A stretch of 64,000 nucleotides of DNA from Patescibacteria group bacterium (GTDB lineage: Bacteria; Patescibacteriota; WWE3; UBA101185; UBA10185). The notes beneath the pieces are model-generated. The model was not told the origin of the DNA. It did not search any database and worked only from the letters and a program-made list of their open reading frames with translations. The stretch's first letter is position 1. Each line of letters opens with the position of its first letter. Shown here piece by piece: positions 6,866-35,746 of the stretch. The stretch lies in contig JAHJEV010000003.1 in the NCBI GenBank assembly GCA_018825365.1, forward strand, positions 2,284 through 66,283, read 5' to 3'. The position numbers and the translations under genes were made by a program.

Positions 6866-6938
6866 TTATATGTCGTTAAAATTATTTGACTTATATATTT
6901 TACTGGCAGGATGGACTTTTAACAAGGGTTTTTCACTC

Positions 6939-11806: not shown

Positions 11807-11846
11807 GAAGAATATAATTTATTAACTTAAAGGAGGTGAATAAAAT

Positions 11847-12350: not shown

Positions 12351-12408
12351 TGATTGGTTAGTGGAGTTGGAATTGCGTACGTAGCCAGAGCTCTGTTTAT
12401 AGAGTCAA

Positions 12409-12444
12409 AGGGGACCCGTATTTGGCGGGTCTCCTTAAGTTTTT
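12409..12444 (+). terminator. Rho-independent terminator after the pilin gene (shared by convergent genes)
   Basis: Hairpin GGGGACCCG-tatttgg-CGGGTCTCC followed by a T-rich run (TTAAGTTTTTA). Confidence 0.5.
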
Positions 12445-12473
12445 ATGAAAAGCCTCAGGTTAATTAAAACACG

Positions 12474-12914: not shown

Positions 12915-12921
12915 TAATTTT

Positions 12922-13806
12922 ATGCAGACATTGTGTTATATTTTTCTTTTTTTAGGCGGCGCTCTTATCGGATCTTTTTTAAACTTGGTTTCTGATCGTC
13001 TTCCAAAGCGTAAGCTGATTATTTTTGGAAGATCCAAATGTGATTTTTGTAACAAACCCCTTGAGCCTAGAAATTTATTCCCTATATTTTCTTTTCTTTT
13101 CCAAAAAGGTAGGTGTTCCTTTTGCAAAAAGAAGCTTTCCCTTTACTACCCCCTTTCGGAGATCTTATCTGGTTTGTTATTTATAGTTGCCGGTTACGCA
13201 TCCAGATTTTTTCAAGTTCCATCATTTGCAACTCTTATTACCTTTATCTTTTATGCCGTTGTATTTAGTTTTTATCTGATTATTTCTCTGACGGATTTGA
13301 AGAAATGTATTATTCCTGACGAAGTTGTCTATCCAGCTATTGGTTTTACTGTTTTATATATTTTATTTTCCAGAGCTTATGATTTTTTGACTATGAAAAA
13401 AGCTCTGTCTAACGATCAACTTGGGGTTTATCTTATAAAAGTTGGATACCTTAATAGTCAGCTTATGTTCGCGCTGAAAAATCTTGGTTTAGTTTTATTA
13501 GGAGCGGTTATTATCTGTTTGTTTTTTATGTTTCTGGTTTGGATCACAAAAGGAAGGGGGATGGGATGGGGAGATGTAAAACTTGGATTTTTAATAGGAC
13601 TTGTTAACGGGTTTCCTTATGGATTTGAGGCGATATTTTTCGGGTTTGTGCTTGGAGCTTTGTATAGTTTGATTTTAATAATATCCAAAAGGAAAACCAT
13701 GAAAGACACGATCGCATTCGGTCCTTTCCTCATCATGGGAAGTGTGCTTACTCTTTTATATGGGGTCAGAATTTTTGATTGGTATACGAGTATAGGGATG
13801 AGGTAA
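12922..13806 (+). CDS. pilD: Prepilin peptidase PilD (A24 family)
   Basis: N-terminal CDFC...CSFC zinc motif, multiple transmembrane segments, and the catalytic DLKKCIIPD and GMGWGDVKL motifs. Start taken at MQTLCYIF. Confidence 0.85.
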   Translation: MQTLCYIFLFLGGALIGSFLNLVSDRLPKRKLIIFGRSKCDFCNKPLEPRNLFPIFSFLFQKGRCSFCKKKLSLYYPLSEILSGLLFIVAGYASRFFQVPSFATLITFIFYAVVFSFYLIISLTDLKKCIIPDEVVYPAIGFTVLYILFSRAYDFLTMKKALSNDQLGVYLIKVGYLNSQLMFALKNLGLVLLGAVIICLFFMFLVWITKGRGMGWGDVKLGFLIGLVNGFPYGFEAIFFGFVLGALYSLILIISKRKTMKDTIAFGPFLIMGSVLTLLYGVRIFDWYTSIGMR

Positions 13807-16995: not shown

Positions 16996-18426
16996 TTACG
17001 ATAAACTTGTGATTTGTTGGATTGGGACCCGCAGTGTCTTTACGCTGTCGGATTCAATTTTTTCGCCAGGTTTTAATATTGTTGTTTTAGGAAGGGATAT
17101 CCAAAATGTGCTTCCCTTGCCTATTCCATCGGATGTTGCCCAAACTTTCCCCCCCATTCCCTCAACATAAAGCCTTACAATATAAAGTCCAAGTCCAGTG
17201 CCGCCTGTGTCTGAAGCTATAGTATAGGAATTATCTATTCTTCCGAATTTATGGAAAAGCTTTGGAATATCCGGGGGGTTAATTCCGGACCCGGAGTCTT
17301 TTATCTGAATCACTACTTTATCTTCTTCGTTTTCTACCGTCACTTTTATTCCCCCGTTATCGGTAAATTTAACAGCGTTATCTATCAAGTTTATGATCAC
17401 ATTTCTCATTTTCTCTTTATCGATATCCACAAAAACGTCAAGACACTCTTCATCGAAACTTAAGTTAATCCCTTTGCTTTTAGTCTTTATCTCAAAGCCG
17501 GTAAGAATTTCCTTTATGAGTTCGCAAAGATTTGTTTGAATAATCTTGAACTCTACCTTATCTTGTTCGAATCTGGATATATTAAGCATGTCGTTAATCA
17601 AATCTATCATTCTTTGAGTCCCCCTTTCGGCCTTTTGAAGGTATTCTTTCTGTTTGTTGTTTAGTTTCCCTGTTTTATGTTGATCCATCATCCAAAGATA
17701 ACTTTTAACGATTGTCATTGGGGTTCTGAGTTCGTGTGAGGCTACTGTTAAAAACTCATCCTTCATTTTATTTAGAACCATTAAATTCTCGTAGGCTTCA
17801 TTAAGGTCATCTTTCACTTCTTTTAGGTTTTTATAAAGCCGTGAATTTTCAAGAGCAATTCCTGCGTTCTCGGAAAATTTTCTTAACATTTCCTTTTCAA
17901 AATCAGAAATTTTATCCGCATTTTTTGACATGCTGACTATCAAAACTCCGATAGCTTTGTCTCTGACGGTCAGTGGTGTTGCGATATTCAACTTGGTGCC
18001 AAGGAGCGCCTGGATATCTTTTGAATCTTCAAGTGTAACGGAAGGACCTAAAAGATCAAAAAGATTTCCTGATACGTACTGCTTTTTATCTTTGATGGCC
18101 CTTATACAAAGGTTGTCTTCATACCCTAGGGCTATACTTTTACTTCGAAGCGAGTCTTTTAGTTTTCTCATGACATTTTCATCTTTTATGGTTTGGGATA
18201 TTGCCGTTTTTACAAGTTTTTGTCTTTGTTCATCAACAAGCCAAAGAATCGAAAATTCATATCCCAATGCCATTGGGATGATGTCCGCAATTTTTTGGGC
18301 CATCTCGTCAAAGTCGTTAGTTCCAAGGATTATTTCGATAAGCTTATATGTAGCGTCAAGTGCCCTATTCTTATCAACAAGAGCCAAAAGCTCATTCTCC
18401 TTAAGTTGAACAGTATTATTATTCAT
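16996..18426 (-). CDS. Cytoplasmic sensor histidine kinase with GAF domain
   Basis: GAF region followed by the HisKA H-box (TVASHELRTPMT) and HATPase_c N/G boxes (NLIDNAVKF, DSGSGI, GGTGLGL). No transmembrane segment. Confidence 0.85.
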   Translation of the reverse strand: MNNNTVQLKENELLALVDKNRALDATYKLIEIILGTNDFDEMAQKIADIIPMALGYEFSILWLVDEQRQKLVKTAISQTIKDENVMRKLKDSLRSKSIALGYEDNLCIRAIKDKKQYVSGNLFDLLGPSVTLEDSKDIQALLGTKLNIATPLTVRDKAIGVLIVSMSKNADKISDFEKEMLRKFSENAGIALENSRLYKNLKEVKDDLNEAYENLMVLNKMKDEFLTVASHELRTPMTIVKSYLWMMDQHKTGKLNNKQKEYLQKAERGTQRMIDLINDMLNISRFEQDKVEFKIIQTNLCELIKEILTGFEIKTKSKGINLSFDEECLDVFVDIDKEKMRNVIINLIDNAVKFTDNGGIKVTVENEEDKVVIQIKDSGSGINPPDIPKLFHKFGRIDNSYTIASDTGGTGLGLYIVRLYVEGMGGKVWATSDGIGKGSTFWISLPKTTILKPGEKIESDSVKTLRVPIQQITSLS

Positions 18427-18461
18427 GGCAGTAGCTTAATTATATATGTAAGTTTACAATT

Positions 18462-18758
18462 TTGGATATGGCAAGAAGATTTCAGAAAAAACTTGAGAAT
18501 TTCAAATGTGATAATTGTGGATACGAAGTTGTTGGATTCGGGTACACAAATCACTGTACCCAGTGTTTGTGGAGCAAGCATGTTGATATATTTCCCGGAG
18601 ATCGGAAGGAGGACTGCAAAGGTTTAATGAGGCCAATTAGGATTGAAAAAAAGAAAGATGGGTATGTGATAGTTCACAAATGTGAGAGGTGCGGGGAGGA
18701 AAGAAAAAACAAGGCATCCCCGCAGGATAATTTTGAGCAGATTATAAAAATAAGCTAA
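18462..18758 (+). CDS. RNHCP domain protein (paralog 2)
   Basis: YTNHCTQCLWSKHVD plus CDNCGY and CERCGE, the same motif set as 12474..12914. Confidence 0.7.
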   Translation: MDMARRFQKKLENFKCDNCGYEVVGFGYTNHCTQCLWSKHVDIFPGDRKEDCKGLMRPIRIEKKKDGYVIVHKCERCGEERKNKASPQDNFEQIIKIS

Positions 18759-18814
18759 CTCCCCTACCCGACTTTATTTGACTTGTTGTATTTCCTGACT
18801 GGTGTTATAAATTA

Positions 18815-19228
18815 ATGTATATGGATGAAAATAAAATTCCAAAAAATAATATTTTGATAATAGAAGATGAGCAGGATATTAGAGAAATTTATGTTGAGGT
18901 TTTGACCAATGCTAAATACACGGTAGATCAGGCTGCCGATGGGGAGACGGGGATGCAAAAGATAAAAGAAGGAAACTGGGACCTTTTACTACTTGATATA
19001 ATGCTTCCCGGAAGGGACGGACTTAAGATACTAAAGGAGATTAAAGAAACCCCCGGACTTAAAAAAGGTCCTGTTATTGCTCTGACTAATTTAAACAGCG
19101 AAAACATTATTCATGAGGTTTTTACTTCGGGAGCGGACGGGTATCTGATTAAAAGTGAAATTACACCGGATAAGGTAGTTGAAGAGATTGCGAAGGTTTT
19201 GAGTAAAGAGGAAGAAGAAAACAAGTAA
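18815..19228 (+). CDS. Stand-alone response regulator receiver (CheY-like)
   Basis: ILIIEDE, the phospho-acceptor DLLLLDIMLPG, the T (ALT) and the K (YLIKS). No output domain. Confidence 0.85.
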   Translation: MYMDENKIPKNNILIIEDEQDIREIYVEVLTNAKYTVDQAADGETGMQKIKEGNWDLLLLDIMLPGRDGLKILKEIKETPGLKKGPVIALTNLNSENIIHEVFTSGADGYLIKSEITPDKVVEEIAKVLSKEEEENK

Positions 19229-20034: not shown

Positions 20035-20161
20035 AAACATTATTCACGAGGTTTTCACTTCGGGAGCGGATGGGTATCTGATTAAAAGTGAAATTACACC
20101 AGATAAGGTAGTTGAAGAGATTGCGAAGGTATTGGGTAAAGAGAAAGAAGAAAACAAGTAG
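20035..20161 (+). pseudogene. Diverged duplicate of the 3' end of the response-regulator gene (gene fragment)
   Basis: About 127 bp at roughly 90% identity to 19102..19228. It keeps the frame (NIIHEVFTSGADGYLIKSEITPDKVVEEIAKVLGKEKEENK*) but has no 5' part. Confidence 0.6.
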
Positions 20162-22055: not shown

Positions 22056-22676
22056 CTATTGATGTATTGCCTCAACTAACTCTCCAATTGAATTAAACCT
22101 ATCAAACTCAAGCCCCAGGTCTGTTTTGAAGTTTGAGTAGAAGGATTCCTGGTATCCATTCTCCCAGGGAGATGCTTTCTTGCTCATAGATATTGTTATT
22201 CCAAGATACTTTGCAAAATCTGTGTATCCTTTGCAGTTATATTCCGATCCCTGATCCGTGTGTACCACCTTTGGAAGTTTGTACCCGGTACTTTCAAAGG
22301 CGGAAAGGAGGGCATCAAGCACGAGCTCTTTAGTATGTTTACTAGAGACCGACCATCCCTCAATCTCTCTTGTGAAAAGATCCATAAATGTTGCCAGATA
22401 CATATATCCCTCCTTGTATTTTATATACGTGAAATCCCCCACGTAGGTAATATCAGGAACAATGGGAAAGAGACCTTTTATATGATTCTGATATATTGCG
22501 GGAGGGTTTCTCTCATCTCTTCTTTTCCTTAAGTGTTGTTTTCTTTTGGTAGGCTTAATACCAAATCTTTTCATTACTCTCCTAACTCGTTTCTTACCAA
22601 TACCCAAAGCTAAAGCTACTCTTCTGTGTCCATAGGCAGGATTATCCTCCAGAACAGAAAGTATTTGTTCTCTCAA
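22056..22676 (-). CDS. IS3-family transposase OrfB (integrase core; frame open upstream toward orfA)
   Basis: DDE/rve motifs with IS3 OrfB architecture. It is probably expressed as an OrfAB fusion by a -1 frameshift. Confidence 0.8.
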   Translation of the reverse strand: MREQILSVLEDNPAYGHRRVALALGIGKKRVRRVMKRFGIKPTKRKQHLRKRRDERNPPAIYQNHIKGLFPIVPDITYVGDFTYIKYKEGYMYLATFMDLFTREIEGWSVSSKHTKELVLDALLSAFESTGYKLPKVVHTDQGSEYNCKGYTDFAKYLGITISMSKKASPWENGYQESFYSNFKTDLGLEFDRFNSIGELVEAIHQ

Positions 22677-22809: not shown

Positions 22810-23061
22810 CTAACCTCTCCTATTTTTTTTAAACTTGGAAAGCTCCAAGGAAAGCATCCCGATAATTTCCTTTAGTTCCATGTTCTCACGCTTAAGTTTA
22901 GCGTGTTCTATAGTGGAAACAGTTCCGATAGCTTTGTTTCTAAGCCACCCATATATTGTTCTAAAGTGTATCCCGTACTGCTTTGATAACTCAACTACTG
23001 GTATTCCTGATTTAACCTTACTAAGTACCTCATCCTTAATATCTTTAGACACATTAGTCAT
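22810..23061 (-). CDS. IS3-family transposase OrfA
   Basis: The 83-aa HTH protein (GIPVVELSKQYGIHFRTIYGWL) followed by a leucine-zipper-like segment. Confidence 0.8.
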   Translation of the reverse strand: MTNVSKDIKDEVLSKVKSGIPVVELSKQYGIHFRTIYGWLRNKAIGTVSTIEHAKLKRENMELKEIIGMLSLELSKFKKNRRG

Positions 23062-23102: not shown

Positions 23103-23642
23103 CTAATGGAGATTCTCAGAATATGTGTCTAGTTTAATGGGTACCTCCCATTGGTGTATAGATACACGGTTTGGTATCAACTCCTTCTTAGCCTTTCTAC
23201 CACAATGTTTGGTTCTGTGTTTCTTACCCTGTTTAAGATCTTGATAAAGCTTTTCTCTTACGCAGTACGGGTTTTTATATATCCAGTTATATATCGTTTC
23301 ATTACAGCAAGGAATTACATCGACAGTTTCAAGATCAATACGAAGTTCAATCCTGCCCCTAATGGCATCAGGAGACCAACCGGATTTAAGTTTTTCAATG
23401 ACGTAGGATTGTGTCTTTGAGTCAGATAGTTTAGGTCTTTTCCCACATCTGCCGCGTTTAGTATCATAGTCGATTTGAGCGATATCAAAGAAGTACCCTT
23501 TTGGTGTAGATCTGTTATTAATTTCCCTGCAGATCGTAGATTTATCTACACCCAGTTTTCCGGCTATTGCCGAAACTGTATACTTTTCATCAAGCAATAC
23601 TTCTATTGCTTTCCGATCTGCAACGGTTATATGTTTGTGCAT
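23103..23642 (-). pseudogene. IS30-family transposase, N-terminal fragment truncated by the IS3 insertion
   Basis: HTH regions (TVSAIAGKLGVDKSTICREI, KLKSGWSPDAIRG, ETIYNWIY) run up to IPNRVSIHQ, which normally precedes the DDE domain. The DDE domain is absent. Confidence 0.7.
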
Positions 23643-23726: not shown

Positions 23727-24326
23727 ATGATAAAACCAAAGCTTTTAAAGGCTGTTTTGTTTCTGGTAATACTTTCAATAACGCTGTTTATTATCTTTTT
23801 CTTTTTTCATAAATACAAAGAGAGCGGGAAATCAAAAGGATCACAGGGATCACAAAGCGTCTTTGGAACCTTGTTAAAAGGATCGAGTGCTCCAACCAGT
23901 ATATCGACCGAAGGGATAGAAGATATCGTTAACTTTATTAAAGATGCCGGTGCTTCGGGTTCAACCCAGTCAGGATCGGAAGTTCAGCCAAAGGTATGGG
24001 ATTACAAAACATCGTTTATGCAAGGGTTTATTGCCAGTAAAGATGTGGCTAAAGGTACGTTTACACTTTGGATCCCAAGTCCCTCTGACAAGATATTTTC
24101 TGAGACTGACAAAGAGGTAAGAGTTAACTGTACACCGGATATTTCAGTGGTGGTCACTCCAATGAATTTTAATATCATCGAAAGAGATGTAAATATACTT
24201 GAAAAAGCAAAACCAGCGGTTGATGGTATCATGGCCTTTTGTTTGGATGAGAACTGTGACGCTATAGGTAGAAATTGTGCCATAATCCAAGATTTCTATA
24301 ATTTTGCCTATGAACAACAGCGATAA
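23727..24326 (+). CDS. Membrane-anchored hypothetical protein
   Basis: N-terminal transmembrane helix, a G/S-rich linker and a Cys-containing C-terminal domain. Confidence 0.45.
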   Translation: MIKPKLLKAVLFLVILSITLFIIFFFFHKYKESGKSKGSQGSQSVFGTLLKGSSAPTSISTEGIEDIVNFIKDAGASGSTQSGSEVQPKVWDYKTSFMQGFIASKDVAKGTFTLWIPSPSDKIFSETDKEVRVNCTPDISVVVTPMNFNIIERDVNILEKAKPAVDGIMAFCLDENCDAIGRNCAIIQDFYNFAYEQQR

Positions 24327-24468: not shown

Positions 24469-25254
24469 CTATTCAGCTAATTGTTCTAGCAGTTGATACT
24501 GCTCTTCCGTTACCGGGATAACATACATGGTTGCAAACAGACCAGATGGTTTCATTCGATCCGTGATTTGGTCAAAGAAATTATCCCAAACAAAATTGTT
24601 TCCATTGTCTGAGTTGTGAACCGCAAATTGCATTTGTGCACTTTCGGGTGCAACTAATCTTGTTAGCCCAGCACAGTAAGTAAGTTTTTCCCACCACCAG
24701 CCCCACGTAGAGTTATCATATTCGGTTTCATTCCACCAGACCCCACCCGCCGCTATAATCAACGTTCCAACGTAATCCTGTTCAGGATGTATGGGTAGTT
24801 GAATTTCGCTAAGATCGATAAATGTGTCGTTTGCGGTGTCGTACGTAATGACCTGGCTATAAAGATGTGTCGTATCTCCCAGCAGAATTTTTGGTGTCAA
24901 TTCAAAGTTAAGAATGTCCGCTAGTGTCTGATACATATAGCCGAGATCGGTGAGGGTAGAATTTGGCGGCTTCTCAAACTTCAAAAAGATTATGGATTTG
25001 GGATCTGTAGTTACCGATGGAATTATCGTTGTCGTTGTCGTTGGAGTCATTGTTGGAGTTATCGTTGAAACTGGTTTCATCGTGCTAGTTGGTGTAGCCG
25101 TGGAGGTTTGAGTTGGTGTTTTTATTGGTGTGTAAGATGTAACTATCCAAACAGTCCCTGCGAGTAAAAGTACTGCTAATACTGCTACGAAGATCAGAAC
25201 GATACGTAAGGTGTAGTTCTTCTTATTCTTATTCATTTTTCTCTCCTTTTTCAA
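24469..25254 (-). CDS. Membrane-anchored protein with Thr/Pro-rich linker
   Basis: Signal-anchor, a TPT-rich low-complexity stalk, and a Trp-rich C-terminal domain (WWNETEYDNSTWGWWWEK). Confidence 0.5.
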   Translation of the reverse strand: MKKERKMNKNKKNYTLRIVLIFVAVLAVLLLAGTVWIVTSYTPIKTPTQTSTATPTSTMKPVSTITPTMTPTTTTTIIPSVTTDPKSIIFLKFEKPPNSTLTDLGYMYQTLADILNFELTPKILLGDTTHLYSQVITYDTANDTFIDLSEIQLPIHPEQDYVGTLIIAAGGVWWNETEYDNSTWGWWWEKLTYCAGLTRLVAPESAQMQFAVHNSDNGNNFVWDNFFDQITDRMKPSGLFATMYVIPVTEEQYQLLEQLAE

Positions 25255-25367: not shown

Positions 25368-27665
25368 ATGGTTAAGTTCAGTAAATTTAGATTTTTAGTT
25401 ATAATTCCCCTTTCGTTTTTACTATTTTTTTTGTTTTTTACACTCAAAAATCGTTTATCTGTTGTTTATGCAGCTTCTTGTACAGCGACAGATTGTCCCT
25501 CTGGTTGGTACGTTTGTCAATACGGAACTATGTGCTGTAAAGGTAAAGGTTGCCCGAGTTATGCTTGTGGCTACTATGATTGTTTGGGCTGGGAGTATAA
25601 ATGTGGTGCTTGCAACATATTTGAGTGTTTGCCTGACACTGTAACTTACGACTGTTCTTATAATTCTACCTGTTATTACACTGGTACCTGCTCTTACGCC
25701 TCTACCTGTTCTTATAATTCTACCTGTTATTACACTGGTAGCTGTCCTTACGCTTCTACCTGTTATTACACTGACAGCTGTTGTAGAGGTGGGTATTCGT
25801 GTGGGTGGCATGGGTGGAAATATTCCTGTTCCTATGACTCCTGCAAAAGCACCTATGCTTGCACCAAATCCTTTTCCTGCACAAAATACTATTCCTGCCA
25901 ACAATCCTATTCCTGTACCAAATCCTATTCCTGCACAAAGTACTACACTTGCCAAATCCCCTATACCTGTAAAATTTCCAAGACATGCACTCGTATCGAA
26001 AATGTGTGCAAATGGCGCACTTATGAAGTAGGGAATTGTGAGAAATGTCCATTGCAGTCATATTGTAAAAAGGGTTGGGGTATTGTGAAATGTGATGGAG
26101 CATGTATGATCTGTGTTCCTAGTGTACCTCCCACACCTCCCTGTTCAGCTGTAAACGGTGGTTGGTCAGCATGGAGTGCGTGCAGTGGCTGCAGCCAGAG
26201 TCGGTCATGTACTAATCCGGCACCTTCATGTGGTGGATCCGGTTGTTCGGGAATCGCCACGCAAGCCTGCGGTACTGTAAATGGTGGCTGGTCAGCATGG
26301 AGTGCGTGTCTTTCAACGTGCGGACCGGGTACAATAACTCGTACCTGCTCAAACCCCTACCCTGCTTGTAGCGGAGTGGACTGTTCCCTTCTTGACGGTG
26401 GTAATTATTCTCAAGCCTGTAACGCAGATCCATCTTTACACACATACACACTAAGTATCACTGTAAAGGAGGCACCTACCGATACGTGCCCCGCAACAGG
26501 TACTGTACAGGGTGATACTTTGGTTTCAGTGTATAATGCCGGTAATAATCAAGTTATCTTTTCAGGATATACCCCGGCCAGTGGTGTAATAACTATACCT
26601 GGTATTAACATAGCAATTAAAAACTTTAATATACAAGCCTCAAAAACAGTACCCGGACCAAGTCCTGATGTCTACGACTTAAAATGCCCAAGTACAGGTA
26701 TAGCCTTAGTGTCTGTAAATCCTACTGCCTGTTCAACTCAAAGTGTAGATTTAGGTATCAAGAAACGTCCTAAATTCCCATGGAGTGTTGTTTTAGATGG
26801 GGATGTATATGCTATGTCTGTTTCAACTGCGGTTCCCTCAGGTTTGGCAGCTGGTGGATTTACCAACTATCTCATAAACTACCCATCTTCAATTGGGGGT
26901 ATTGTTCTTGCTAAGGATCTTATACTTACCGATTCATCAAGAGTATACAAGTCCCCGTATGGAGCTTTGTCTCAAAGACTACCATCCACAATTCCCGGTG
27001 GAGATGTGGCACTATCCAGATTTCAATTTACTCCTCCAACTCACAGCGGAGTTAAAACTTTAGCTTTGCCATCTTCCGCAAATCCAATCAGGTTTGACTC
27101 GGACGTAGTTGTATACAAGGCATCAGTAAATGATTTTAATACATGGCTTACGGGAGCAAATCCCACATATCTGGTGCAACACCAAGGTAAACTTGCCATA
27201 CTTTACCTTACGGGAGGAAATGATCTTATCTTTTCTCATGGTTTAAGAGCTATTGGTGGTGCCGGAGGTGGAAGGCTTCTTATCATCACAAACTCAAGGG
27301 TTAAGATATCAAAAGAAGTCGGATCCGCTATTGCATCATATGAGGCCTCTTCCGATCCTAACATTATGGCAGCTATTATATCCTCAGGGGATATCATATT
27401 TGAGTCCCAAGGCACAAGTCCAGGAACCGATATCCCTATTATGGTTGCAGGCCCTCTTGTTTCCAAGTCAACCGTAAAACTTCAAAGAGACCTTGGGGAT
27501 ACCAACAATGGTTTGTATCCTGCTCAATCAGTAAAATATTATCCTAAGTTTCTTTATGATATATCCTCAACCGAATACACACAAAAAGATATGCCAAACT
27601 ATACGGGATTCAGGTCCTTTGATGTTCAGTTTGTATATGATGATTGGAATACTTATCCTTACTAA
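25368..27665 (+). CDS. Secreted Cys-rich protein with two thrombospondin type-1 (TSP1) repeats; candidate pilus-associated adhesin
   Basis: Signal peptide, then a Cys/Tyr/Ser/Thr low-complexity repeat region. Two tandem repeats read [10 protein letters not shown]...C...TCG.G...R.C.NP.P.C (the WSxWSxC TSP1 signature) at about 26150..26400. A long C-terminal domain follows, and the gene ends 15 bp before the PilX-like gene. Confidence 0.8.
25653..25760 (+). repeat. Perfect-to-near-perfect 54-bp tandem duplication inside the TSP1 gene
   Basis: tgttcttataattctacctgttattacactggta(c/g)ctg(c/t)(t/c)cttacgc(c/t)tctacc occurs twice in a row. It encodes the [19 protein letters not shown] units. Confidence 0.8.
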
Positions 27666-27679: not shown

Positions 27680-28570
27680 ATGAATACTAAAATGAAAAAC
27701 ATAAAAGAAAATGAAAAAGGCCAAGCACTCTTGTTTGTGGTTGTTGCAGTAACTATTGCACTTTCTGTTGGGGTATCAGTATCAACAAGGACCCTGTCTT
27801 CTCAAAAAAGAGTAGCCAGCTCAGATACCGCAATCAGAGTTGCTAATGCTGCTGAGGGGGGAGCTGAGATGATGCTTGGTCAAAGCTATTCCTTCCTGGC
27901 AAGTTTTACTCCCGGTCCTCCCAACTGTGCATCTGTTGGCTTAACCCTGGAGGGTGCAAGTTGTGTACTAACCTATCTTCCTACATCCAAAGATAATATC
28001 ACCACAAAGGCTAGTGTTAATGCAGTAGGTTTTAGTATGAACACCTCTGACCACTACTGGTTTGATTTAAGTCCCGGTATGGTTAAGGATGTGAGATTAG
28101 TAGGATACAGTGACTCAGGATGGTCAGGTTCTAACCATGGTATTTATGTTTGCTGGGAAAATCCAAAAGCAGCAATTTACACTCTTTCTTACAATTCCTC
28201 CGGGAACATAAAAAAGGAATGGTTCGTGAGTAACCATTTCACTAACACATCCAACACATCCGGGTTTTCTATAACCAGTCAAAACAACGGACATGCTAAG
28301 TATACTGCTTGTGCTTCGATTCATCTTGTTTCCTCCCCATATGGTTTGAGAATCAAAACACTTTATGATTCTACAAGGATCCATGTTTATCCTGGCACAA
28401 ACGGCAGCTTTCCAACCCAAGGCTACAAGATAATATCAAAAGGTGAGCTTGTTTCCGGAGGAGGAGGTGATGTTAAAGAAACAAGGGTTGTTGCTGTCTA
28501 TAAATCATTCCCCTACGCTGCTTCCATAATAGATTCCGGTCTTTACTCTGCAGGTGGGGGTATAAATTAA
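27680..28570 (+). CDS. PilX-like minor pilin/pilus assembly protein
   Basis: N-terminus EKGQALLFVVVAVTIALSVG...AIRVANAAEGGAE matches the PilX_N pattern. Confidence 0.55.
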   Translation: MNTKMKNIKENEKGQALLFVVVAVTIALSVGVSVSTRTLSSQKRVASSDTAIRVANAAEGGAEMMLGQSYSFLASFTPGPPNCASVGLTLEGASCVLTYLPTSKDNITTKASVNAVGFSMNTSDHYWFDLSPGMVKDVRLVGYSDSGWSGSNHGIYVCWENPKAAIYTLSYNSSGNIKKEWFVSNHFTNTSNTSGFSITSQNNGHAKYTACASIHLVSSPYGLRIKTLYDSTRIHVYPGTNGSFPTQGYKIISKGELVSGGGGDVKETRVVAVYKSFPYAASIIDSGLYSAGGGIN

Positions 28571-28729: not shown

Positions 28730-29311
28730 GTGAAAAAATCTAAAAAATTCTTAGGACCAAAAACTTCGGGTTTCACGCTTATTGAACTTATGATCGTCAT
28801 TGTAATCATAGGTATTCTATCCGGAGTCTTAATCGCAATCATTAACCCAGTTGCTGCTCAAAATAAAGCAAGGGATGCGAACACCAAAGCTACTATTAAC
28901 AAACTGGCATTGGGAGCATCTTCATTTATAAGTGCAGAAGGCAGGATTCCGGATGAGGTTCAGTTCCTATCAGAGTTTCAAAGTATAGCAGCAAATGGGG
29001 CAACATGCTCTACTGCCAGTGCTGCTGATTGCCAATTTAGTATAACGGGAAGTCCACTTCCGGTGGGAGGTACCGCCGGGTGTAGTAATGCTGCTAGCTG
29101 GGGAGGTGCAGGAGCCAATCAATGTTATTATTCCTACTGTGGTGGGGATGGTGCTGATGCAACCATAGCGTGTAGTTGGACAACCACCACAACCACCTAT
29201 AGGATTATTGCTAAAGCCTTTGGTACTGCAAATGTTATTATGTACAGAAGCGCGGATTCAAAAACGTACTCTTGTACTGCGGCTGGTACAAGCTGTATAG
29301 CACTGTATTAA
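28730..29311 (+). CDS. Prepilin-type (N-methylation domain) pilin, Cys-rich C-terminus
   Basis: GFTLIELMIVIVIIGILSGVLIA. Confidence 0.8.
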   Translation: MKKSKKFLGPKTSGFTLIELMIVIVIIGILSGVLIAIINPVAAQNKARDANTKATINKLALGASSFISAEGRIPDEVQFLSEFQSIAANGATCSTASAADCQFSITGSPLPVGGTAGCSNAASWGGAGANQCYYSYCGGDGADATIACSWTTTTTTYRIIAKAFGTANVIMYRSADSKTYSCTAAGTSCIALY

Positions 29312-29374
29312 TTAACTCGATCTGACCTTTTTTTATAGTGCAGTCCTCAAAAAAGGACTGCACTTGGAGTGTAG

Positions 29375-29839
29375 ATGGGAAAATATAGAAGTAAGGAAGG
29401 TGGTTTGACTTTAATAGAGCTTATGATTGTGGTTTTAGTGCTTGGTGTTTTAAGTGGTATTTCTATTTCAGTGGTCAACCGGGGCCAGCAGCAGGGTCGC
29501 GCAAAAGATGCTGTAAATCTTTCTAGTTTAACAAAAGCGGCCTCAGCAATCGAGTCTTACTATTATGGGGAAGGCAACTACCCGGTAATTACTGCCGCCG
29601 ACAACGGCAATCCGCTACTCAACTCCACCAATATTTCTTTAGATGTATATCTTAAAACCTGGCCGGATGGGTTTTTCTATCTTTATGATTCAGCGTCAGG
29701 CACCTTTGCCGTGTATGTAAAAAGGAATGTAGATGGTAACTTTTACAAATATATTTCTACGGATACCGTAATAAAGTTATGCAATAAGAGTAATTCACAG
29801 ACCACTACAGTTGTTAGTGCTTGTACAGTGATCCCGTAA
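29375..29839 (+). CDS. Prepilin-type pilin
   Basis: GLTLIELMIVVLVLGVLSG. Confidence 0.75.
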   Translation: MGKYRSKEGGLTLIELMIVVLVLGVLSGISISVVNRGQQQGRAKDAVNLSSLTKAASAIESYYYGEGNYPVITAADNGNPLLNSTNISLDVYLKTWPDGFFYLYDSASGTFAVYVKRNVDGNFYKYISTDTVIKLCNKSNSQTTTVVSACTVIP

Positions 29840-29855
29840 TAAGGATAATAAAATT

Positions 29856-30416
29856 ATGAAAAGAAAAAAGGAAACTATTCAGGAAGGTTTCACACTTATT
29901 GAGCTTATGCTTGTGGTACTGATAATTGGTGTTTTAAGCGGGTTGATGCTTGGAGTCATAAATATTCCTGGTATTCAATCTAAGTCTAGGGATGCCAGAC
30001 GTATCGGGGAGTTAAAGAGAATTCAAACGGCTCTTGAGCTTTACTTTGCTGACTTTAGAGGATATCCGTCAAAAACAGCATGGCAAGATTTGAGTGTTGC
30101 CGGAAATTCCGTATCTTCTGCAATCAGTCCGATCTATATTAACAAGGTTCCCGAGGATCCAAAAAAAGGTAGTAACGCGTCTGCGGGAGTGTCTTGTTTT
30201 AACGGCAAAACCGCATATGGCTACTACTATATAACTAACAGTTGTGTCGGATCAGGGTGTTTATCAGGTAAGTATGTTTTGGGAGCTATTATGGAAGTAT
30301 CTGGCAGCGCAACTAATTATTTGTGTTCTAATCTAGGAAACTGTACTGGAGCCACCCCGGCTATAACTTGCGCATGCGGCGGAGCATATTGTTATGGTGT
30401 TGAAAATCCCCTCTAA
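29856..30416 (+). CDS. Prepilin-type pilin (GspG-like N-terminus)
   Basis: GFTLIELMLVVLIIGVLSG...KSRDARRIGELKRIQTALELY. Confidence 0.8.
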   Translation: MKRKKETIQEGFTLIELMLVVLIIGVLSGLMLGVINIPGIQSKSRDARRIGELKRIQTALELYFADFRGYPSKTAWQDLSVAGNSVSSAISPIYINKVPEDPKKGSNASAGVSCFNGKTAYGYYYITNSCVGSGCLSGKYVLGAIMEVSGSATNYLCSNLGNCTGATPAITCACGGAYCYGVENPL

Positions 30417-30912
30417 AAAGTTATTACGCTTTTCAAACCAAGGTGGATTTACTCTTGTTGAACTTCTTGCAACCTCAACCATTGCTTTGATTCTTCTTGC
30501 TCTTGCAATTGTCTATTTTAATCCTGCCGAAAGAATCAAAAGAGCACGGGATGGCAAAAGACTTTCTGATATTTCAAAAATTGATCGGGCGATAAGTGAG
30601 TTTATGCTTGACAAAAAATACTATCCCGACACGCAAGGGGTACTAAGATTAAGCACTGCCCTTCCGGAAGGAAGCACCTCTTTAAACAAATCAAACAAAG
30701 GGTGGATTTTTGATAACTTATCTTCCTACATACCCATGCTCCCGACAGACCCTTTAAATGACGAGACGTATCACTATTCATATATTCGGGGAAGTGACGG
30801 TTATGAATTAGACGCAAAACTTGAGTTAATGACAGATGAGATGCTAAATGATGGCGGTAATGACAACTTAATGTATGAGGTAGGCAGTAACCTAAATCTA
30901 ATCTCGCCATAG
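30394..30912 (+). CDS. Prepilin-type pilin
   Basis: GGFTLVELLATSTIALILLALA. The start is uncertain and overlaps the previous gene. Confidence 0.7.
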   Translation: MVLKIPSKKLLRFSNQGGFTLVELLATSTIALILLALAIVYFNPAERIKRARDGKRLSDISKIDRAISEFMLDKKYYPDTQGVLRLSTALPEGSTSLNKSNKGWIFDNLSSYIPMLPTDPLNDETYHYSYIRGSDGYELDAKLELMTDEMLNDGGNDNLMYEVGSNLNLISP

Positions 30913-30935
30913 CTTTTGTGATAATATAAATTCAT

Positions 30936-31475
30936 ATGAGTCTGCCCAAAAAAACCATATTTTCCGCAGGTTTTACTCTTCTTGAGCTTATGATAGTTGT
31001 TACCATTATTGGTATTATATCCGCAGGTCTTATCCCTGCTTTTTCCAATTACATCAGAAGTCAGAATTTAAAACAAGCACAGGAACAATTGAAAAGCGAT
31101 ATGAGGACTGTTCAAAACAAAGCTTTGACCGGAGCCTTGTCAGATCAACTGCTGGGAAGTACATATATAAAATACTGGGGAATTAAATTTTTCAAAGGAC
31201 AGTCTACTTATGATTATTTTGTTTCCATATCCTCCGCAGCCTGCCCTGCCGGTCCGCCCTATGCAGCAGGGGTTTATCAGGGAAAGGGTTCTTTTGGGTC
31301 TGATTTAAAAATTCAAAATGCTTCGACGTGTGTGTTTTTTGATATAGCAAATGGAGATGTAGTCAGCAGTTTACTATCAGGCGGCTCCGGCTTCGCTTCG
31401 GTTGGGTATTCAGCCACAGAGCTGAAGAAAGTGTTTTTTAATAGTTATGGTCTAATTTATTCCACAAATGAATAG
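30936..31475 (+). CDS. Prepilin-type minor pilin
   Basis: AGFTLLELMIVVTIIGIISAG. Confidence 0.75.
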   Translation: MSLPKKTIFSAGFTLLELMIVVTIIGIISAGLIPAFSNYIRSQNLKQAQEQLKSDMRTVQNKALTGALSDQLLGSTYIKYWGIKFFKGQSTYDYFVSISSAACPAGPPYAAGVYQGKGSFGSDLKIQNASTCVFFDIANGDVVSSLLSGGSGFASVGYSATELKKVFFNSYGLIYSTNE

Positions 31476-31956
31476 AAAAGTACTAAAAAAATACAAACAC
31501 ATGTATAAAAATACAAAGGAAAAAGGGATAGCTTTAGTTGAGGTTATTGCAGCCTTGGGAATTGCCGTTATTGTCATAACATCATTGGTTTCTCTTTCCA
31601 TATCCACGATGAGATCATCCTTAAAAAGCAAGCTCCTTTTGGAGGGTTCAAAGATTGCAAACAGGGAAATTGAGCTTGTCAGAGCCTTTAGGGATAATAG
31701 CGCAACTTGGGAAGACCCGGGGTTTTTATCCATATTAAGCTGTACATCCAGTCCTTGTTATATGAAAGTTGATGGTTCGGGAATTGCCTCAGGCAGTGCC
31801 GTGGACGGAAGCGGAACCGAAGCAATAACCCGTTATTTTACCGTCACAAACAGCGCTGATATTGTGAGGGTTTCCGTATCGGTTACCTGGAAAGTTGGTA
31901 ATGACACACATGGCGCATACGTTAAAACCGATTTATCCAATTGGCGGGGAAGATGA
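31468..31956 (+). CDS. Prepilin-like minor pilin (PilV-like)
   Basis: KGIALVEVIAALGIAVIVITSLV. Start uncertain. Confidence 0.6.
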   Translation: MNRKVLKKYKHMYKNTKEKGIALVEVIAALGIAVIVITSLVSLSISTMRSSLKSKLLLEGSKIANREIELVRAFRDNSATWEDPGFLSILSCTSSPCYMKVDGSGIASGSAVDGSGTEAITRYFTVTNSADIVRVSVSVTWKVGNDTHGAYVKTDLSNWRGR

Positions 31957-31957
31957 T

Positions 31958-32512
31958 ATGAGAAGAGGGCCTATAAAAAAAATCAAAAATAATATTCAGA
32001 AGGGATTTACGCTTATTGAGCTTATGCTTGTGGTCGTTTTAATTGCAGTGTCTGTGGGTGTTACAAACGATATTTTAATGTCACTGGTAAGAAGCAATAA
32101 CAAAACACAAGTTATGACTGAAATTGAGCAACAATCCAATTTTGTTTCATCAAAGATAGAAAGAGAGCTTAGAAACGCCAGGAGCGTAACAACACCCCTT
32201 GCCGGGGCTTTTGGTTCCTCACTTGTTTTTGAGACTAAAGATGGAACCACTATTGAGTACAATGTTGACACTACCTCCGGTCTTATAAAAAGAAAAGTAA
32301 ATACCGGGACGTTAACGAATATAACTTCCAATAATAATCCCGGAGGAGTGGTGGCGACCTGCGGATCCCCCTCTTGTTTCTCGGTTTCCGGGTTCAATCC
32401 TCAAATTGTGAATGTAAGCATAAAGTTTTCCCAGGCACAACCGGGTGCAGGCAGTTCTTACTCCGGTCAAACAACGATTCAAAGTACTGTTGTGGTGAGA
32501 AATACTTATTAA
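31958..32512 (+). CDS. Prepilin-type minor pilin
   Basis: KGFTLIELMLVVVLIAV. Start taken at the ATG at 31958. Confidence 0.7.
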   Translation: MRRGPIKKIKNNIQKGFTLIELMLVVVLIAVSVGVTNDILMSLVRSNNKTQVMTEIEQQSNFVSSKIERELRNARSVTTPLAGAFGSSLVFETKDGTTIEYNVDTTSGLIKRKVNTGTLTNITSNNNPGGVVATCGSPSCFSVSGFNPQIVNVSIKFSQAQPGAGSSYSGQTTIQSTVVVRNTY

Positions 32513-32529: not shown

Positions 32530-33342
32530 ATGAAATTTAAAATGATAAAAGAGAAAGGCCAGACGCTTCTGATAATAGTCCTACTTAGCTTTCTTGCCTT
32601 GTCTGTTGGGATTGTTGTTTCAAATAGATTTATAAAAACGCTGAGGGATGTTTCAGAATCTGATAATTCTTCAAGGGCAAGAGCAGTAGCTGAGGCCTTG
32701 GTAGAAAGACTATTGATTGTTTCAAACGCTACTTTAGGAGATTACATTAATTTTGGCAGTTGTGGGACGGCATGTTCCTTGGAAATTAACGGGTTCCTTG
32801 GACAAGTTGTAAGAGCAGACGCAACCCTTTCTTTTGCGGGGGCAAGTGCAGATCCTTTTGAAATAGCAGGAAAAAACGGCGAGGTTTCCCAAATTACGCT
32901 GGTTAGTTACGCGACAAATAGCTCGTTAGATGTTTGTTGGAGCGGGGGGGCATCTGTATACGCTTCATATATTTATGATCAAAGCGGTGTTATAGCGGCC
33001 GATATTTACGCTTACAACCCGGTTGGATATACCGGCTACATAAATAATTTTTCGGATGCCATATCCTCACACGGCTACCCGAATTGTTTTACTGTTTCAA
33101 CTCCATACACCCCAAAGGTATTAAGAATAAGACCTATTAATGCAGATGCTACTATAATTATTGTCCCATCCGGCGGGCACTCACTACCCAGCCAGGGAGT
33201 TTTGATAACCTCAATTGGCAGGGCTGGAGACGCTGTCAAGACCGTAAAAGTCTTAAAATCAAGTGCCTCTGCCCCGGAATATATGGATTTTGTAATTTAC
33301 CAGAAATCAACCACGGATCCGTTGTCTAACAGGCCGAACTAA
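32530..33342 (+). CDS. PilX-like protein (second copy)
   Basis: EKGQTLLIIVLLSFLALSVG...SSRARAVAEALVERLL. Confidence 0.55.
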   Translation: MKFKMIKEKGQTLLIIVLLSFLALSVGIVVSNRFIKTLRDVSESDNSSRARAVAEALVERLLIVSNATLGDYINFGSCGTACSLEINGFLGQVVRADATLSFAGASADPFEIAGKNGEVSQITLVSYATNSSLDVCWSGGASVYASYIYDQSGVIAADIYAYNPVGYTGYINNFSDAISSHGYPNCFTVSTPYTPKVLRIRPINADATIIIVPSGGHSLPSQGVLITSIGRAGDAVKTVKVLKSSASAPEYMDFVIYQKSTTDPLSNRPN

Positions 33343-33356: not shown

Positions 33357-34388
33357 ATGCCCATAATAGGATTGAATATAGGAAAAAGAAGTTTCAGGGC
33401 TGTTGAGCTTGACTTCAAAAAGGACAAAATAATCCTAAACAATTTTGGTAATTATTCCAACCCCAAAGTTTCAATGGATCCAAACTCTCAGGATGACTTA
33501 GATATGGTGTCACAATCCTTAGAGCAGTTTTTTTCAGAAGTTGGTTTCAGTTCTTCGGATATAATCACAAGTGTCAATGAAACTAATGTTTTCATGAGAA
33601 TTATTAAACTTCCGGCAATGAACGATAAGGAACTTAAAAGTTCTATTAAGTTTGAAGCAGAACAGTATATTCCCCTACCCTTAGATCAGGTGAATGTTTC
33701 GTATCAAAAACTCGAACAGGACTTTTCTGATAAAGGAAAAATGAGTGTTCAAATTGTTGCTGCAAGAAAAGACATTGTTGAAAAATATGTTGAAATACTG
33801 AGAAAAGCAAAGTTAACCCCAAAGGCTATCGAACCTGAAACAATAGCTTTAGGAAGAGTTTTGGGAGATACGAAAGAAAACCCCTCGGGTACTATGATTT
33901 TGGAGATGGGATATTCAAATTCTCTGATTGTTGTTTGCTACGGGGGATTTGTGAGATTCACAAGGGCAATCCCAATCGGAGGGGATGTTATTACAAAGAC
34001 GATCATGCAGTCGCTTTCTTTGGATTATGAACAGGCTGAGGAATATAAAAAAGTCTATGGTTTGGATGATTTTCAGGGAGAAGGGAAAGTTGCAGCTGTG
34101 ATAAAGCCGGTTATTGATAATCTAATTTTGGAAGTTCAAAGGGCTGCTGTTTTCTTCACAAATCACAATCCTTCTGCTAGTATTAAACGAGTAGTATTAA
34201 GTGGAGGAACTGCCCTAATGCCAAACTTATTATCTTATGTTGCTAACAAACTTGATCTTGAGGTCATGTTGGCAAATCCCCTAAACAATATTGAGATATC
34301 TCCAAAATTGGAAAAGCAAAAACAGACTATTATTGATGAGGCACCGCTGTACTCATCCGTAATTGGTTTGGCTTTGAGGAAAATATAA
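33357..34388 (+). CDS. pilM: Type IV pilus assembly protein PilM (actin-like ATPase fold)
   Basis: 343 aa with a PilM-like N-terminus (IGLNIGKRSFRAVEL), followed by pilN and pilO. Confidence 0.8.
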   Translation: MPIIGLNIGKRSFRAVELDFKKDKIILNNFGNYSNPKVSMDPNSQDDLDMVSQSLEQFFSEVGFSSSDIITSVNETNVFMRIIKLPAMNDKELKSSIKFEAEQYIPLPLDQVNVSYQKLEQDFSDKGKMSVQIVAARKDIVEKYVEILRKAKLTPKAIEPETIALGRVLGDTKENPSGTMILEMGYSNSLIVVCYGGFVRFTRAIPIGGDVITKTIMQSLSLDYEQAEEYKKVYGLDDFQGEGKVAAVIKPVIDNLILEVQRAAVFFTNHNPSASIKRVVLSGGTALMPNLLSYVANKLDLEVMLANPLNNIEISPKLEKQKQTIIDEAPLYSSVIGLALRKI

Positions 34389-34967
34389 ATGGCCGGAGAT
34401 ATAAATTTAATACCACAATCTGAGGTAGTTGAGCAGATAAAAACTAAGGCTGTAAAAACAAGCACCCTCGTGGCTTTAATCTTTCTGGGTGTTGTAGTTT
34501 TGATTTGTACCTACCTTTTTATAGTCACCGGTAGTATAAAAAAACAAATCTCTGCCGCTGATAGTGCGATTGCGTCCCTAAGAGGCAGAATAAATGAGTT
34601 ATCTTTAGTTGAAATTTCCGCAAGAAATCTTGATAAGAAATACAAAGTTCTGAATACTCTTTTTGCTCAAAGACCAAAGTACTCCGCCTTGTTGGAAGAA
34701 CTCAACATAAGAAAGTCCAAGCAGATAACAATTGATAGTTTAGATTTAAAGATTGGATCTATGAACATCTCCGGATCTGCTGGAAACTATATCGCAATTG
34801 CTGGATTTGTTAATAACCTGCTAGATAAGACTTTTGAGGGTGGAAACGCCAAACTAAAGGAGGTTTTCACAACCGTTTCTCTAAACTCAGTAAGCCTCGA
34901 AAAATCCACTAACGAAGTTAGATTTTTTATTGTAGTTAATTACAACGATAGTTTACTTAAACAATGA
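34389..34967 (+). CDS. pilN: PilN
   Basis: Short cytoplasmic N-terminus (INLIP), a single transmembrane segment and a periplasmic coiled coil. Confidence 0.7.
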   Translation: MAGDINLIPQSEVVEQIKTKAVKTSTLVALIFLGVVVLICTYLFIVTGSIKKQISAADSAIASLRGRINELSLVEISARNLDKKYKVLNTLFAQRPKYSALLEELNIRKSKQITIDSLDLKIGSMNISGSAGNYIAIAGFVNNLLDKTFEGGNAKLKEVFTTVSLNSVSLEKSTNEVRFFIVVNYNDSLLKQ

Positions 34968-35746
34968 AATCAGGAGAAAACAAAAAACCAGGTTTAAATA
35001 TTGACACATCCAAGATAAAGGGGATTTTAATAAACTTCGTAGTTTCTCTTGTTGCGTCCGGTCTGTCACTGCTTTTGATAATACTAATTGGTTACCCGTA
35101 TTTTAAGAATCTTTCCCATATCAAAGAGGATTTAAGACAAAAAGAGCAATTAAAAAGAGTCCTGAATGATAAAATCGTTATTTTAAACAGACTTGTTGAT
35201 TTCAAAAGCGTAGTTGACGAAGATTCCAATCTTGTTAATCAGGTATTGGTCAACGAGGCAGAGGTCCCAAGACTTTTGGACGAGGTAAATCAGATCGCCA
35301 CCAATTCCGGCATGGATGTTACAAGGTTAAGCTACTCCTACGGGGGAGCCGAAACCCCAGATGTTAGCGAGGGTAAGCAGGTTTCTTATAGTACTGTATC
35401 AATTGCTTTAGGGACCGATTCGAGTTTTGAACAGTTAGTTGTATTTATGAAAGCAATTGAAAATGCCGCGAGGTTCGCAAGTGTTCCAAACTTTAGATAC
35501 GCTGCCACAACAACAATCGAGGGGGAAAGTAAACTTGGGGGCAGCTTTTCAATAGAATCCCCATTTTTACTTGTTAAATCAACAGCAGTAACTGACGAAC
35601 CAGTGGATCTTGATATTTCCAGTCAAAATTTTGTTGACTTCATAAACATGATCAAAGGTTTGAAATTCTATGAGTTTCTAAATCCGAATATTGAGGTTGT
35701 GAAAACAGAAACTCCAACGGAAGAAGTAACCACGCCACAAGAGTAA
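34964..35746 (+). CDS. pilO: PilO-like
   Basis: Transmembrane segment plus coiled coil plus a C-terminal domain, overlapping the pilN stop. Confidence 0.6.
   Translation: MKSGENKKPGLNIDTSKIKGILINFVVSLVASGLSLLLIILIGYPYFKNLSHIKEDLRQKEQLKRVLNDKIVILNRLVDFKSVVDEDSNLVNQVLVNEAEVPRLLDEVNQIATNSGMDVTRLSYSYGGAETPDVSEGKQVSYSTVSIALGTDSSFEQLVVFMKAIENAARFASVPNFRYAATTTIEGESKLGGSFSIESPFLLVKSTAVTDEPVDLDISSQNFVDFINMIKGLKFYEFLNPNIEVVKTETPTEEVTTPQE

Follow-up and report, generated by a model that had tools for sequence, protein, structure and literature searches.

A candidate type IV pilus-associated adhesin with thrombospondin type-1 repeats in a WWE3 bacterium

The gene at positions 25368..27665 of a 64,000-nt stretch (the window) from a Patescibacteria group bacterium of the WWE3 lineage (GenBank assembly GCA_018825365.1, contig JAHJEV010000003.1) encodes a 765-aa protein which, judging from its gene context, is probably a Sec-secreted, disulfide-rich modular adhesin working together with the type IV pilus whose genes follow it. 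The protein consists of, in order, a leader, a Cys-rich head, two thrombospondin type-1 (TSP1) units, a CnaB-like sandwich, a beta-solenoid and a conserved tail, and its C-terminal part belongs to an unannotated family that is the real novelty of the locus. The whole case is computational and built on gene context, sequence and models, and the locus is a good but unproven candidate for a molecule gripping partner cells.

Protein layout and TSP1 repeats

A first-pass annotation, made from the sequence alone, had placed the open reading frame (ORF) exactly (765 aa, plus strand) and had described a signal peptide, Cys/Tyr-rich repeats and a large C-terminal domain, a layout that agrees with the sequence composition of each segment. 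The head (amino acids (aa) 36–259) consists of 16.6% Cys and 12.8% Tyr and contains hexapeptide repeats, while tandem repeats with periods of 18 and 54 nt occur in its DNA at 25652-25782 and 25840-25971 (matches of at most 92%, Tandem Repeats Finder); a search of the head against Pfam gave no match. The C-terminal region (aa 352–765, 414 aa) has only three Cys. When searching for the N-terminal prepilin motif G↓F/M-T-L-x-E (PF07963) no N_methyl match was found in the 765-aa protein, which starts with a Sec-like sequence instead; it is not a pilin. A Sec-like leader with an x-[FY]-A↓ site immediately followed by a Cys can be read from the sequences of the full-length family members.

The gene is found with 98.1% nucleotide identity and the same layout in an independent assembly (L003). 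The split gene call in L003 was considered as a sign of frameshift or phase variation but this was rejected, as the reading frame is uninterrupted and the contig merely begins inside the repeats. The gene occurs only once in the 64-kb window.

The two TSP1 units are marked by WSAWS motifs beginning at aa 266 and 308, with the Trp pairs W266/W269 and W308/W311. When scanned alone, unit 2 matched the Pfam family TSP_1 (PF00090) with 27.8 bits (E 2.9e-6, gathering cut-off 21.6), and the family was also recovered above the cut-off with the two-unit segment (27.3 bits), aa 255–466 (26.4 bits) and aa 255–765 (22.5 bits). Unit 1 alone scored below the cut-off (9.8 bits, E 1.2), no Pfam or NCBIfam match at E≤1 was found for the full-length protein and no TSP_1 match for aa 1–360, a segment that includes the Cys-rich region. 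Since truncations without the head restore the match, the blank full-length scan points to masking by the Cys-rich N-terminus, probably by composition-bias correction, and was dropped as a refutation of TSP1; P0004, a protein that NCBI names after TSP1, likewise shows no Pfam match when scanned whole. The Pfam check proposed in the first-pass annotation therefore supports TSP1 for unit 2 and the truncations but not for the full-length protein or for unit 1 on its own.

The claim of two tandem TSP1 units is borne out further by comparison with known structures. A phmmer search against PDB returned human thrombospondin-1 TSR2-3 (TSR, thrombospondin repeat; 1LSL) as first match (E 3.2e-9) and both units align in tandem to the thrombospondin-1 structure 3R6B. 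The AlphaFold2 (AF2) model of aa 255–360, of moderate confidence (predicted local distance difference test (pLDDT) 70.5), matched the three-stranded TSR fold, and its best Foldseek matches in PDB all contain TSRs, with 3R6B at E 1.3e-4 and probability 1.00, although Foldseek scoring is partly sequence-based. Further TSR matches were 1LSL, 7YYK, properdin, UNC5, ADAMTS13, BAI1, semaphorin-5A and TRAP. The WSxWS motif, whose absence from orthologues would have counted against the first-pass reading, is kept in P0003, P0004, P0005, P0123, P0124 and the L012 and L014 proteins.

The units differ in several respects from those of thrombospondin-1, and these differences were followed through the best 120 hits of a database survey (87 prokaryotic/metagenome hits and 33 named eukaryotes). 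Unit 1 has a deletion of ~5 residues in the TCGxG...R hairpin relative to thrombospondin-1, a short form seen in 5 of the 87 prokaryotic/metagenome hits and in none of the 33 eukaryotic ones. Each unit has one Arg, R279 (SQSRSC) and R325 (TITRTC), where thrombospondin-1 has two or three. Both contain six Cys, one of which is shifted; P-x-C-G-G contributes an additional Cys, while the final one of the canonical set is lacking. This shifted-Cys form was identified in 82 units of 34 of the 87 prokaryotic/metagenome hits compared to two units in two of the 33 named eukaryotes, and the last Cys is absent in 40 of 86 prokaryotic units versus 2 of 77 eukaryotic units. By their Pfam and structure matches the units are genuine TSP1-type repeats, and by these sequence features they belong to a prokaryote-enriched subtype distinct from the animal form.

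The blank full-length scan, the 9.8 bits of unit 1 and a Cys pattern departing from that of thrombospondin-1 could also be explained if the WSxWS units had arisen by chance in a protein of low complexity and high Cys content, or if the gene were eukaryotic contamination. This is very improbable when set against unit 2 exceeding the Pfam threshold in each of three truncations, thrombospondin-1 as the best PDB match, Foldseek matches that all contain TSRs, a gene situated within a bacterial operon and nearly identical in an independent assembly, and a variant form common to dozens of prokaryotic homologues.

TSP1 repeats are usually treated as an adhesion module of animals and apicomplexans, and the first-pass annotation had called them uncommon in bacteria. 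The survey does not agree with this, since 87 of the 120 best hits are not from named eukaryotes and NCBI already uses the name "thrombospondin type-1 domain-containing protein" for proteins of candidate division WWE3, Moraniibacteriota and Bdellovibrio. Proteins without this name but with TSP1 hits were also found in Paceibacterota and in a Woesearchaeota archaeon. Many of the prokaryotic hits have bacterial partner domains (PG_binding, dockerin, PKD and N_methyl), while among the eukaryotic hits to the TSP1 stretch, which makes up ~12% of the protein, are SCO-spondin, hemicentin and coadhesin of animals. Among the N_methyl proteins, P0065 is a fusion of a prepilin and TSP1 with both domains above their cut-offs (N_methyl 27.3 bits, TSP_1 35.6 bits), and P0083 and P0010 are borderline cases. 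The repeats may be part of a prokaryotic TSR lineage which, as far as the named hits can be read, occurs mostly in cell-attaching lineages (the candidate phyla radiation (CPR), DPANN and Bdellovibrio). A literature search combining thrombospondin type 1 with CPR, Patescibacteria, Bdellovibrio or pilin revealed no prior description, and the sole apparent match, a preprint, concerned type 3 repeats and not type 1.

The C-terminal family and its linkage to pilus genes

In a first search only five proteins matched beyond the TSP1 stretch, whereas an exhaustive search with aa 352–765 yielded 135 clusters (50% identity); the E value was at most 1e-10 for 81 of these and at most 1e-30 for 17. The domain ends 0–4 residues from the C-terminus in all 53 full-coverage members. 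In front of this same tail, the 41 members that were scanned carry different N-terminal modules, PKD in five cases, TSP_1 in four and Big_6 in three, besides bMG3, CarboxypepD_reg, SdrD_B and SpaA. The C-terminal ~410 residues are thereby shown to be a family-defining module with interchangeable adhesin-type N-terminal modules. The family is not annotated; no Pfam match to the tail was found at E≤10 for the query, in none of the 41 members did a match at E≤0.001 extend over the tail, there was no NCBIfam match, and a sequence search of PDB with the C-terminal domain gave nothing meaningful.

The AF2 model of the C-terminal region has a pLDDT of 90.5 and a predicted template modelling score (pTM) of 0.85, and is confidently predicted to form a CnaB-like sandwich followed by a beta-solenoid resembling that of ice-binding proteins (IBP) and of ComZ. 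When analysing the conservation within the family, using the alignment employed in the search for related loci (A2, the last 175 aa; the wider alignment A1 had no sufficiently conserved stretch), G747 and D752 were invariant and Y745, T746, Q754 and F755 were conserved to at least 90%. The last 14 residues (aa 752–765, model residues 401–414) have a pLDDT below 50 and are disordered in the monomer, yet they hold the most conserved motif of the family, which we infer to be a candidate docking strand on a partner.

Since ComZ binds DNA and adjoins a minor pilin (PMC6561018) and a pilT gene compatible with retraction is present in the window, the protein could instead serve a competence pilus as DNA receptor in the manner of ComZ, with the solenoid binding extracellular DNA that is imported upon retraction, which would benefit a CPR bacterium with a reduced genome. 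We find this improbable. The likeness to ComZ is one of the general IBP fold (10% identity), the lysines by which ComZ contacts DNA are situated between the pilin domain and the solenoid, for which the present protein has no equivalent, and interchangeable adhesin modules together with a diversifying head suit variable surfaces rather than DNA.

The placement of the gene just before a PilX-like/pilin/pilMNO cluster, pointed out in the first-pass annotation, is real, even if the gap is 14 nt (next gene start 27680) and not 15 bp, and it recurs in divergent genomes of WWE3 and other Patescibacteria. The linkage was counted over 15 non-redundant instances of genes with the C-terminal domain. In 11 of these (the window, L004, L007, L008, L009, L010, L011 twice, L012, L014 and L015a) a homologue of the gene directly downstream, PilX-like 1, directly follows the gene of the large protein, and in one more (L015b) pilin genes do so. 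The complete order of large protein, PilX-like 1, five to seven pilins, PilX-like 2 and pilMNO is repeated in L007, L009, L012 and L014, in the last case with a response-regulator gene between PilX-like 1 and the pilins. The large proteins contain one TSP1 unit in L007, one in L012 and three in L014. What ties the protein to the pilus is not the TSP1 repeats but the C-terminal domain, which in other members lies under PKD, Big_6, bMG3 or SdrD_B modules in place of TSP1.

The adjacency was also considered as an accident of the window, caused by insertion sequence (IS) fragments nearby and with L001 and L002 lacking it, but this was rejected as the same layout is found in L007, L009, L012 and L014. 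Two further observations were made among the linked loci. Locus L011, from a WWE3 metagenome-assembled genome (MAG), has at 2074-9818 two consecutive pairs of large protein and PilX-like protein (863 + 294 aa and 1095 + 319 aa) in front of the pilins, which suggests that the two genes are duplicated together rather than singly. Locus L008 (contig CAZLZR010000144.1, 6.2 kb), with a member, its partner and a pilin, is binned as 'uncultured Acetivibrio sp.', which, given the Patescibacteria/WWE3 distribution of the family, may be a binning error rather than an occurrence in Firmicutes.

At its N-terminus the partner PilX-like 1 has a hydrophobic helix like that of pilins, while a canonical prepilin site is lacking. 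Its match to PilX_N (PF14341) reaches 16.9 bits (E 0.0064), below the cut-off of 25.5, and 'PilX-like' is used here as a description and not as a family assignment. Its family comprises 59 proteins, all hypothetical and none with a Pfam domain.

To these data belong a number of observations that weigh against an adhesin working with the pilus. The label of the partner is weak, with PF14341 matched by only two of ten PilX-like 1 homologues and neither an NCBIfam nor a PDB match for PilX-like 1; the model of the TSP1 units reaches a pLDDT of only 70.5; and the fold match of the C-terminal region to ComZ (10% identity, root mean square deviation 22 Å over two bodies) may say little about pili, because it reflects a shared IBP fold common in secreted bacterial proteins without pilus link. 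Moreover, three of the 15 genes (L001, L002 and L005) are flanked by dnaJ and nusA-infB, in a neighbourhood devoid of pilus genes, and in L013 a PilX-like 1 and pilin operon is found without the large protein, which is therefore an accessory and not required by the operon.

The same genomic exceptions, together with the wide occurrence of IBP-fold domains in secreted proteins unrelated to pili and the fact that CnaB/SdrD-B-type sandwiches are typical of the stalks of wall-anchored Gram-positive adhesins, would fit an adhesin of the cell surface or envelope that is merely co-located with the pilus genes, with the C-terminal domain as anchor and the CnaB-like and TSP1 parts as stalk. This we consider unlikely. 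No LPXTG, S-layer-homology, LysM or other known anchor signal and no Pfam or NCBIfam match was found on the tail, and a pairing with a PilX-like gene that recurs in 11 of the 15 instances, twice in succession in L011, and among members only 25–50% identical would be difficult to account for if the two were not functionally linked. Furthermore, the tails of the nusA-locus paralogues are 90–100% identical to those of the pilus-locus copies in the same genome; they could share a partner, which makes the nusA-locus copies weaker as evidence against a link to the pilus. An adhesin acting with the pilus is accordingly the reading we prefer, and the first-pass proposal of a pilus-associated adhesin, possibly for attachment to a host or partner cell if the lineage is episymbiotic, is partly supported.

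The paralogues also give an indication of which part of the protein varies. Two genomes each hold one copy at the pilus locus and one at the nusA locus, the pairs being P0004/P0124 (GCA_012798115.1, L001/L007) and P0003 with a 641-aa protein of L012. From the TSP1 unit to the C-terminus the pairs are 84–100% identical, with 100% identity over the last ~150 residues, while in the first ~150 aa, the Cys-rich head, identity is only 25–50%. Because the paralogues differ in the head and agree in TSP1 and tail, the head stands out as the diversifying part and TSP1 as homogenised body. The first-pass annotation had proposed checking whether the gene is conserved or variable, and variability is indeed seen between paralogues in the Cys-rich head but not in the TSP1 part. 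As far as sequence comparison goes, the head is thus the variable part of the protein and TSP1 is not the part of the specificity type. The pattern suggests either gene conversion or recent duplication followed by fast divergence of the head, though an assembly collapse of the identical parts is possible.

The pilus locus and neighbouring genes

The features of the gene and of the pilus locus in the window are collected in Table 1.

Table 1. Features of the 765-aa protein gene and of the pilus genes in the window.
Feature	Position	Strand	Basis or remark
Whole gene, 765-aa secreted modular protein	25368..27665	+	ORF list; ATG start
Sec-type signal peptide, aa 1–35	25368..25472	+	K/R n-region, F/L-rich h-region, V-Y-A↓A-S; predicted from sequence
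Cys/Tyr/Ser/Thr-rich head, aa 36–259	25473..26144	+	one Cys per 6 residues
TSP1 unit 1 (shortened), aa 263–301	26154..26270	+	tandem alignment to thrombospondin-1 TSR2
TSP1 unit 2 (near-canonical), aa 305–351	26280..26420	+	PF00090, 1LSL, Foldseek
CnaB/SdrD-B/transthyretin-like beta-sandwich, stalk-type, aa 359–466	26442..26765	+	
Ice-binding-protein (DUF3494-like)/ComZ-like beta-solenoid, aa ~471–741	26778..27590	+	core of conserved family domain
Extreme C-terminal motif YTG-x4-D-x-Q-F-x-Y, aa 746–765	27603..27662	+	candidate docking strand
PilX-like 1, 296 aa, N-terminal hydrophobic helix (KGQALLFVVVAV...) and globular domain	27680..28570	+	PF14341, weak
Seven consecutive prepilin-type ORFs (major and minor pilins)	28730..32512	+	N_methyl and prepilin regex
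PilX-like 2, 270 aa, paralogue of PilX-like 1 (28% identity)	32530..33342	+	position before pilM
pilM, pilN, pilO	33357..35746	+	PilM_2 190.5, PilO 30.6, PilN 19.2 bits
199-aa membrane-anchored protein, four conserved Cys	23727..24326	+	upstream partner in subset of loci
pilB	7743-9539	+	machinery, same pilus system
pilT	9536-10600	+	machinery, same pilus system
pilC	10604-11806	+	machinery, same pilus system
pilD, prepilin peptidase	12838-13806	+	machinery, same pilus system

Taken together, the window encodes a complete type IV pilus system. The machinery genes were identified by T2SSE for pilB (423 bits) and pilT (128 bits), T2SSF for pilC (201 bits) and A24_N_bact/Peptidase_A24 for pilD, while the PilN match is below its cut-off of 22.8. 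Six of the seven pilin ORFs are at or above the N_methyl cut-off, with 14.2 bits for the ORF at 31468-31956, and PilM of the window is 80% identical to that of the WWE3 MAG GCA_012798115.1, which marks the organism as WWE3-like. PilX-like 2 is found directly before pilM also in L007, L009, L012, L014 and L015. No terminator-like site was identified between the gene of the 765-aa protein and the first pilin gene, and a promoter scan gave sites no more than chance expectation. The syntenic cluster of L012 contains (11624-13294) a 556-aa prepilin with Gly_rich_2, an unusually large pilin to which none in the window compares in length.

Upstream, in L001, L002 and L007, the TSP1-family gene starts within a homologue of the 199-aa protein gene, and a profile search found no further homologues; there is no Pfam match for the 199-aa protein. 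In the window one gene intervenes between the two, a 261-aa ORF on the minus strand (24469-25254) with a transmembrane helix, a Thr/Pro-rich linker, a Trp-rich C-terminal part and NCBIfam matches that are all sub-threshold. It looks like a lineage-specific insertion, since L001, L002 and L007 have the flanking genes directly overlapping. Between the response-regulator region and the 199-aa protein gene lie three pieces of transposase-like ORFs, recognised by sequence, at 22056-22676 (integrase-core-like), 22810-23061 (helix-turn-helix-like) and 23103-23642, all on the minus strand, which suggests insertion or decay of an IS next to the locus.

Genes for a GAF-HisKA kinase, an RNHCP-domain protein and a response regulator (window 16996-19219) recur near genes for pili and large proteins; at least two of the three are present in L004, L012 and L014, and L013 is without the RNHCP gene. 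The set is a candidate for two-component control of the pilus locus. The window also contains a second RNHCP-like copy (~12558-12866, minus strand), and a tblastn search with the response regulator of L004 revealed, beside the intact gene at 18878-19219, a stretch of 39 aa with 67% identity at 20036-20152, which may be left over from the duplication of a response-regulator gene close to the IS fragments. The sole Rfam match above threshold in the 64-kb window is a tRNA gene (59571-59644, minus strand).

Proposed role and comparison with known systems

For the function of the protein the following model is proposed. The C-terminal ~410-residue module would dock the protein onto the co-encoded PilX-like 1, possibly via the invariant tail strand, and thereby place it in a priming or tip complex, by analogy to PilY1 with minor pilins or ComZ with PilA2. 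Within the conserved body, the two TSP1 repeats would be a stiff stretch braced by disulfides, possibly with glycan binding, and the Cys-rich head would be the ligand-specifying end. By extension and retraction the pilus would present the head and pull on it, so that a partner cell or a surface becomes attached. More tentatively, the arrangement may represent a split tip complex peculiar to WWE3/CPR, in which an IBP-fold docking domain fits with its invariant C-terminal strand into a pilin-like adaptor and the head is exchangeable. A homogenised body of TSP1 and docking domain, kept in two or more copies per genome with very different heads at the pilus operon and at the nusA locus, could then act as a cassette-like switch of the host or surface specificity of the pilus; we regard this extension of the model as possible but doubtful.

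We know of no cultured representative of a WWE3-type lineage. For the way in which CPR/Patescibacteria recognise and hold their partner cells, genetic evidence comes only from Saccharibacteria, in which type IV pili and PilX-type proteins matter (PMC11623550); there PilX1 and PilX2 lack canonical PilD signals, and efficient binding to the host requires PilX2. The locus offers a testable candidate for another CPR lineage, having a defined family, a partner gene, a conserved module with a putative docking role and a delimited variable head. It also reveals a distinct prokaryotic subtype of TSP1, found not only on separate proteins linked to the pilus but also as part of prepilins themselves, and since a Cys-rich neighbour hides TSP1 from full-length Pfam scans such proteins are likely to be under-annotated. 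In the literature searched, the combination of an IBP-fold tail, a dedicated PilX_N-like neighbour, exchangeable adhesin modules and a diversifying Cys-rich head is undescribed.

The TSRs of eukaryotes (thrombospondin-1, properdin, UNC5, ADAMTS and apicomplexan TRAP) share with the units described here WSxWS, the pattern CSxTCGxG...R...C...P...P...G...C, six Cys, the tandem arrangement and an extracellular, adhesive context. They differ by having an R-x-R ladder and the last Cys, where the protein of the window has a single Arg, the Cys at P-x-C-G-G and a hairpin deletion in unit 1. Unit 2 also contains the motif C-x-x-T-C-x-x-G, which in animals is the site of O-fucosylation by POFUT2.

With DUF3494/IBP proteins (Colwellia 3WP9 and Shewanella 6BG8) the tail agrees in fold but not in the sequence hidden Markov model, and nothing suggests ice binding; the domain is here instead the invariant tail of pilus-linked modular proteins. 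A literature search for DUF3494 together with type IV pili gave no paper mentioning DUF3494 among the top results. An IBP-like beta-solenoid is also found in ComZ of Thermus thermophilus (6QVI), the resemblance being at the level of fold only. The authors of the ComZ study described a competence pilin with such a solenoid and argued that it is situated at the pilus tip, bound to the minor pilin PilA2 (PMC6561018). In ComZ, however, the solenoid is inserted in a GspK-like pilin fold within one chain, while the protein studied here has a Sec leader, no pseudopilin domain and a C-terminal solenoid, and the pilin-like helix belongs to the product of the adjacent gene.

PilY1/PilC of Pseudomonas, Neisseria and Myxococcus is, like the 765-aa protein, a large non-pilin Sec substrate that is encoded with minor-pilin genes and combines a variable N-terminus with a conserved C-terminus. 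The conserved C-terminal domain of PilY1 is believed to keep the protein attached to a tip complex of minor pilins. No sequence relationship was found between the 765-aa protein and PilY1/PilC, and the tail of PilY1 is a beta-propeller (Neisseria_PilC) in contrast to the sandwich and beta-solenoid, without Pfam match, of the present family, so the likeness is functional only. Finally, PilB/PilC of S. sanguinis and PilX2 of Nanosynbacter lyticus TM7x are, as proposed here, cases of adhesive modules together with type IV pili in monoderm-like bacteria. In both of these the module is fused to the pilin, whereas in the window the putative adhesin is a separate Sec substrate, encoded beside a 296-aa pilin-like protein without recognisable adhesive module.

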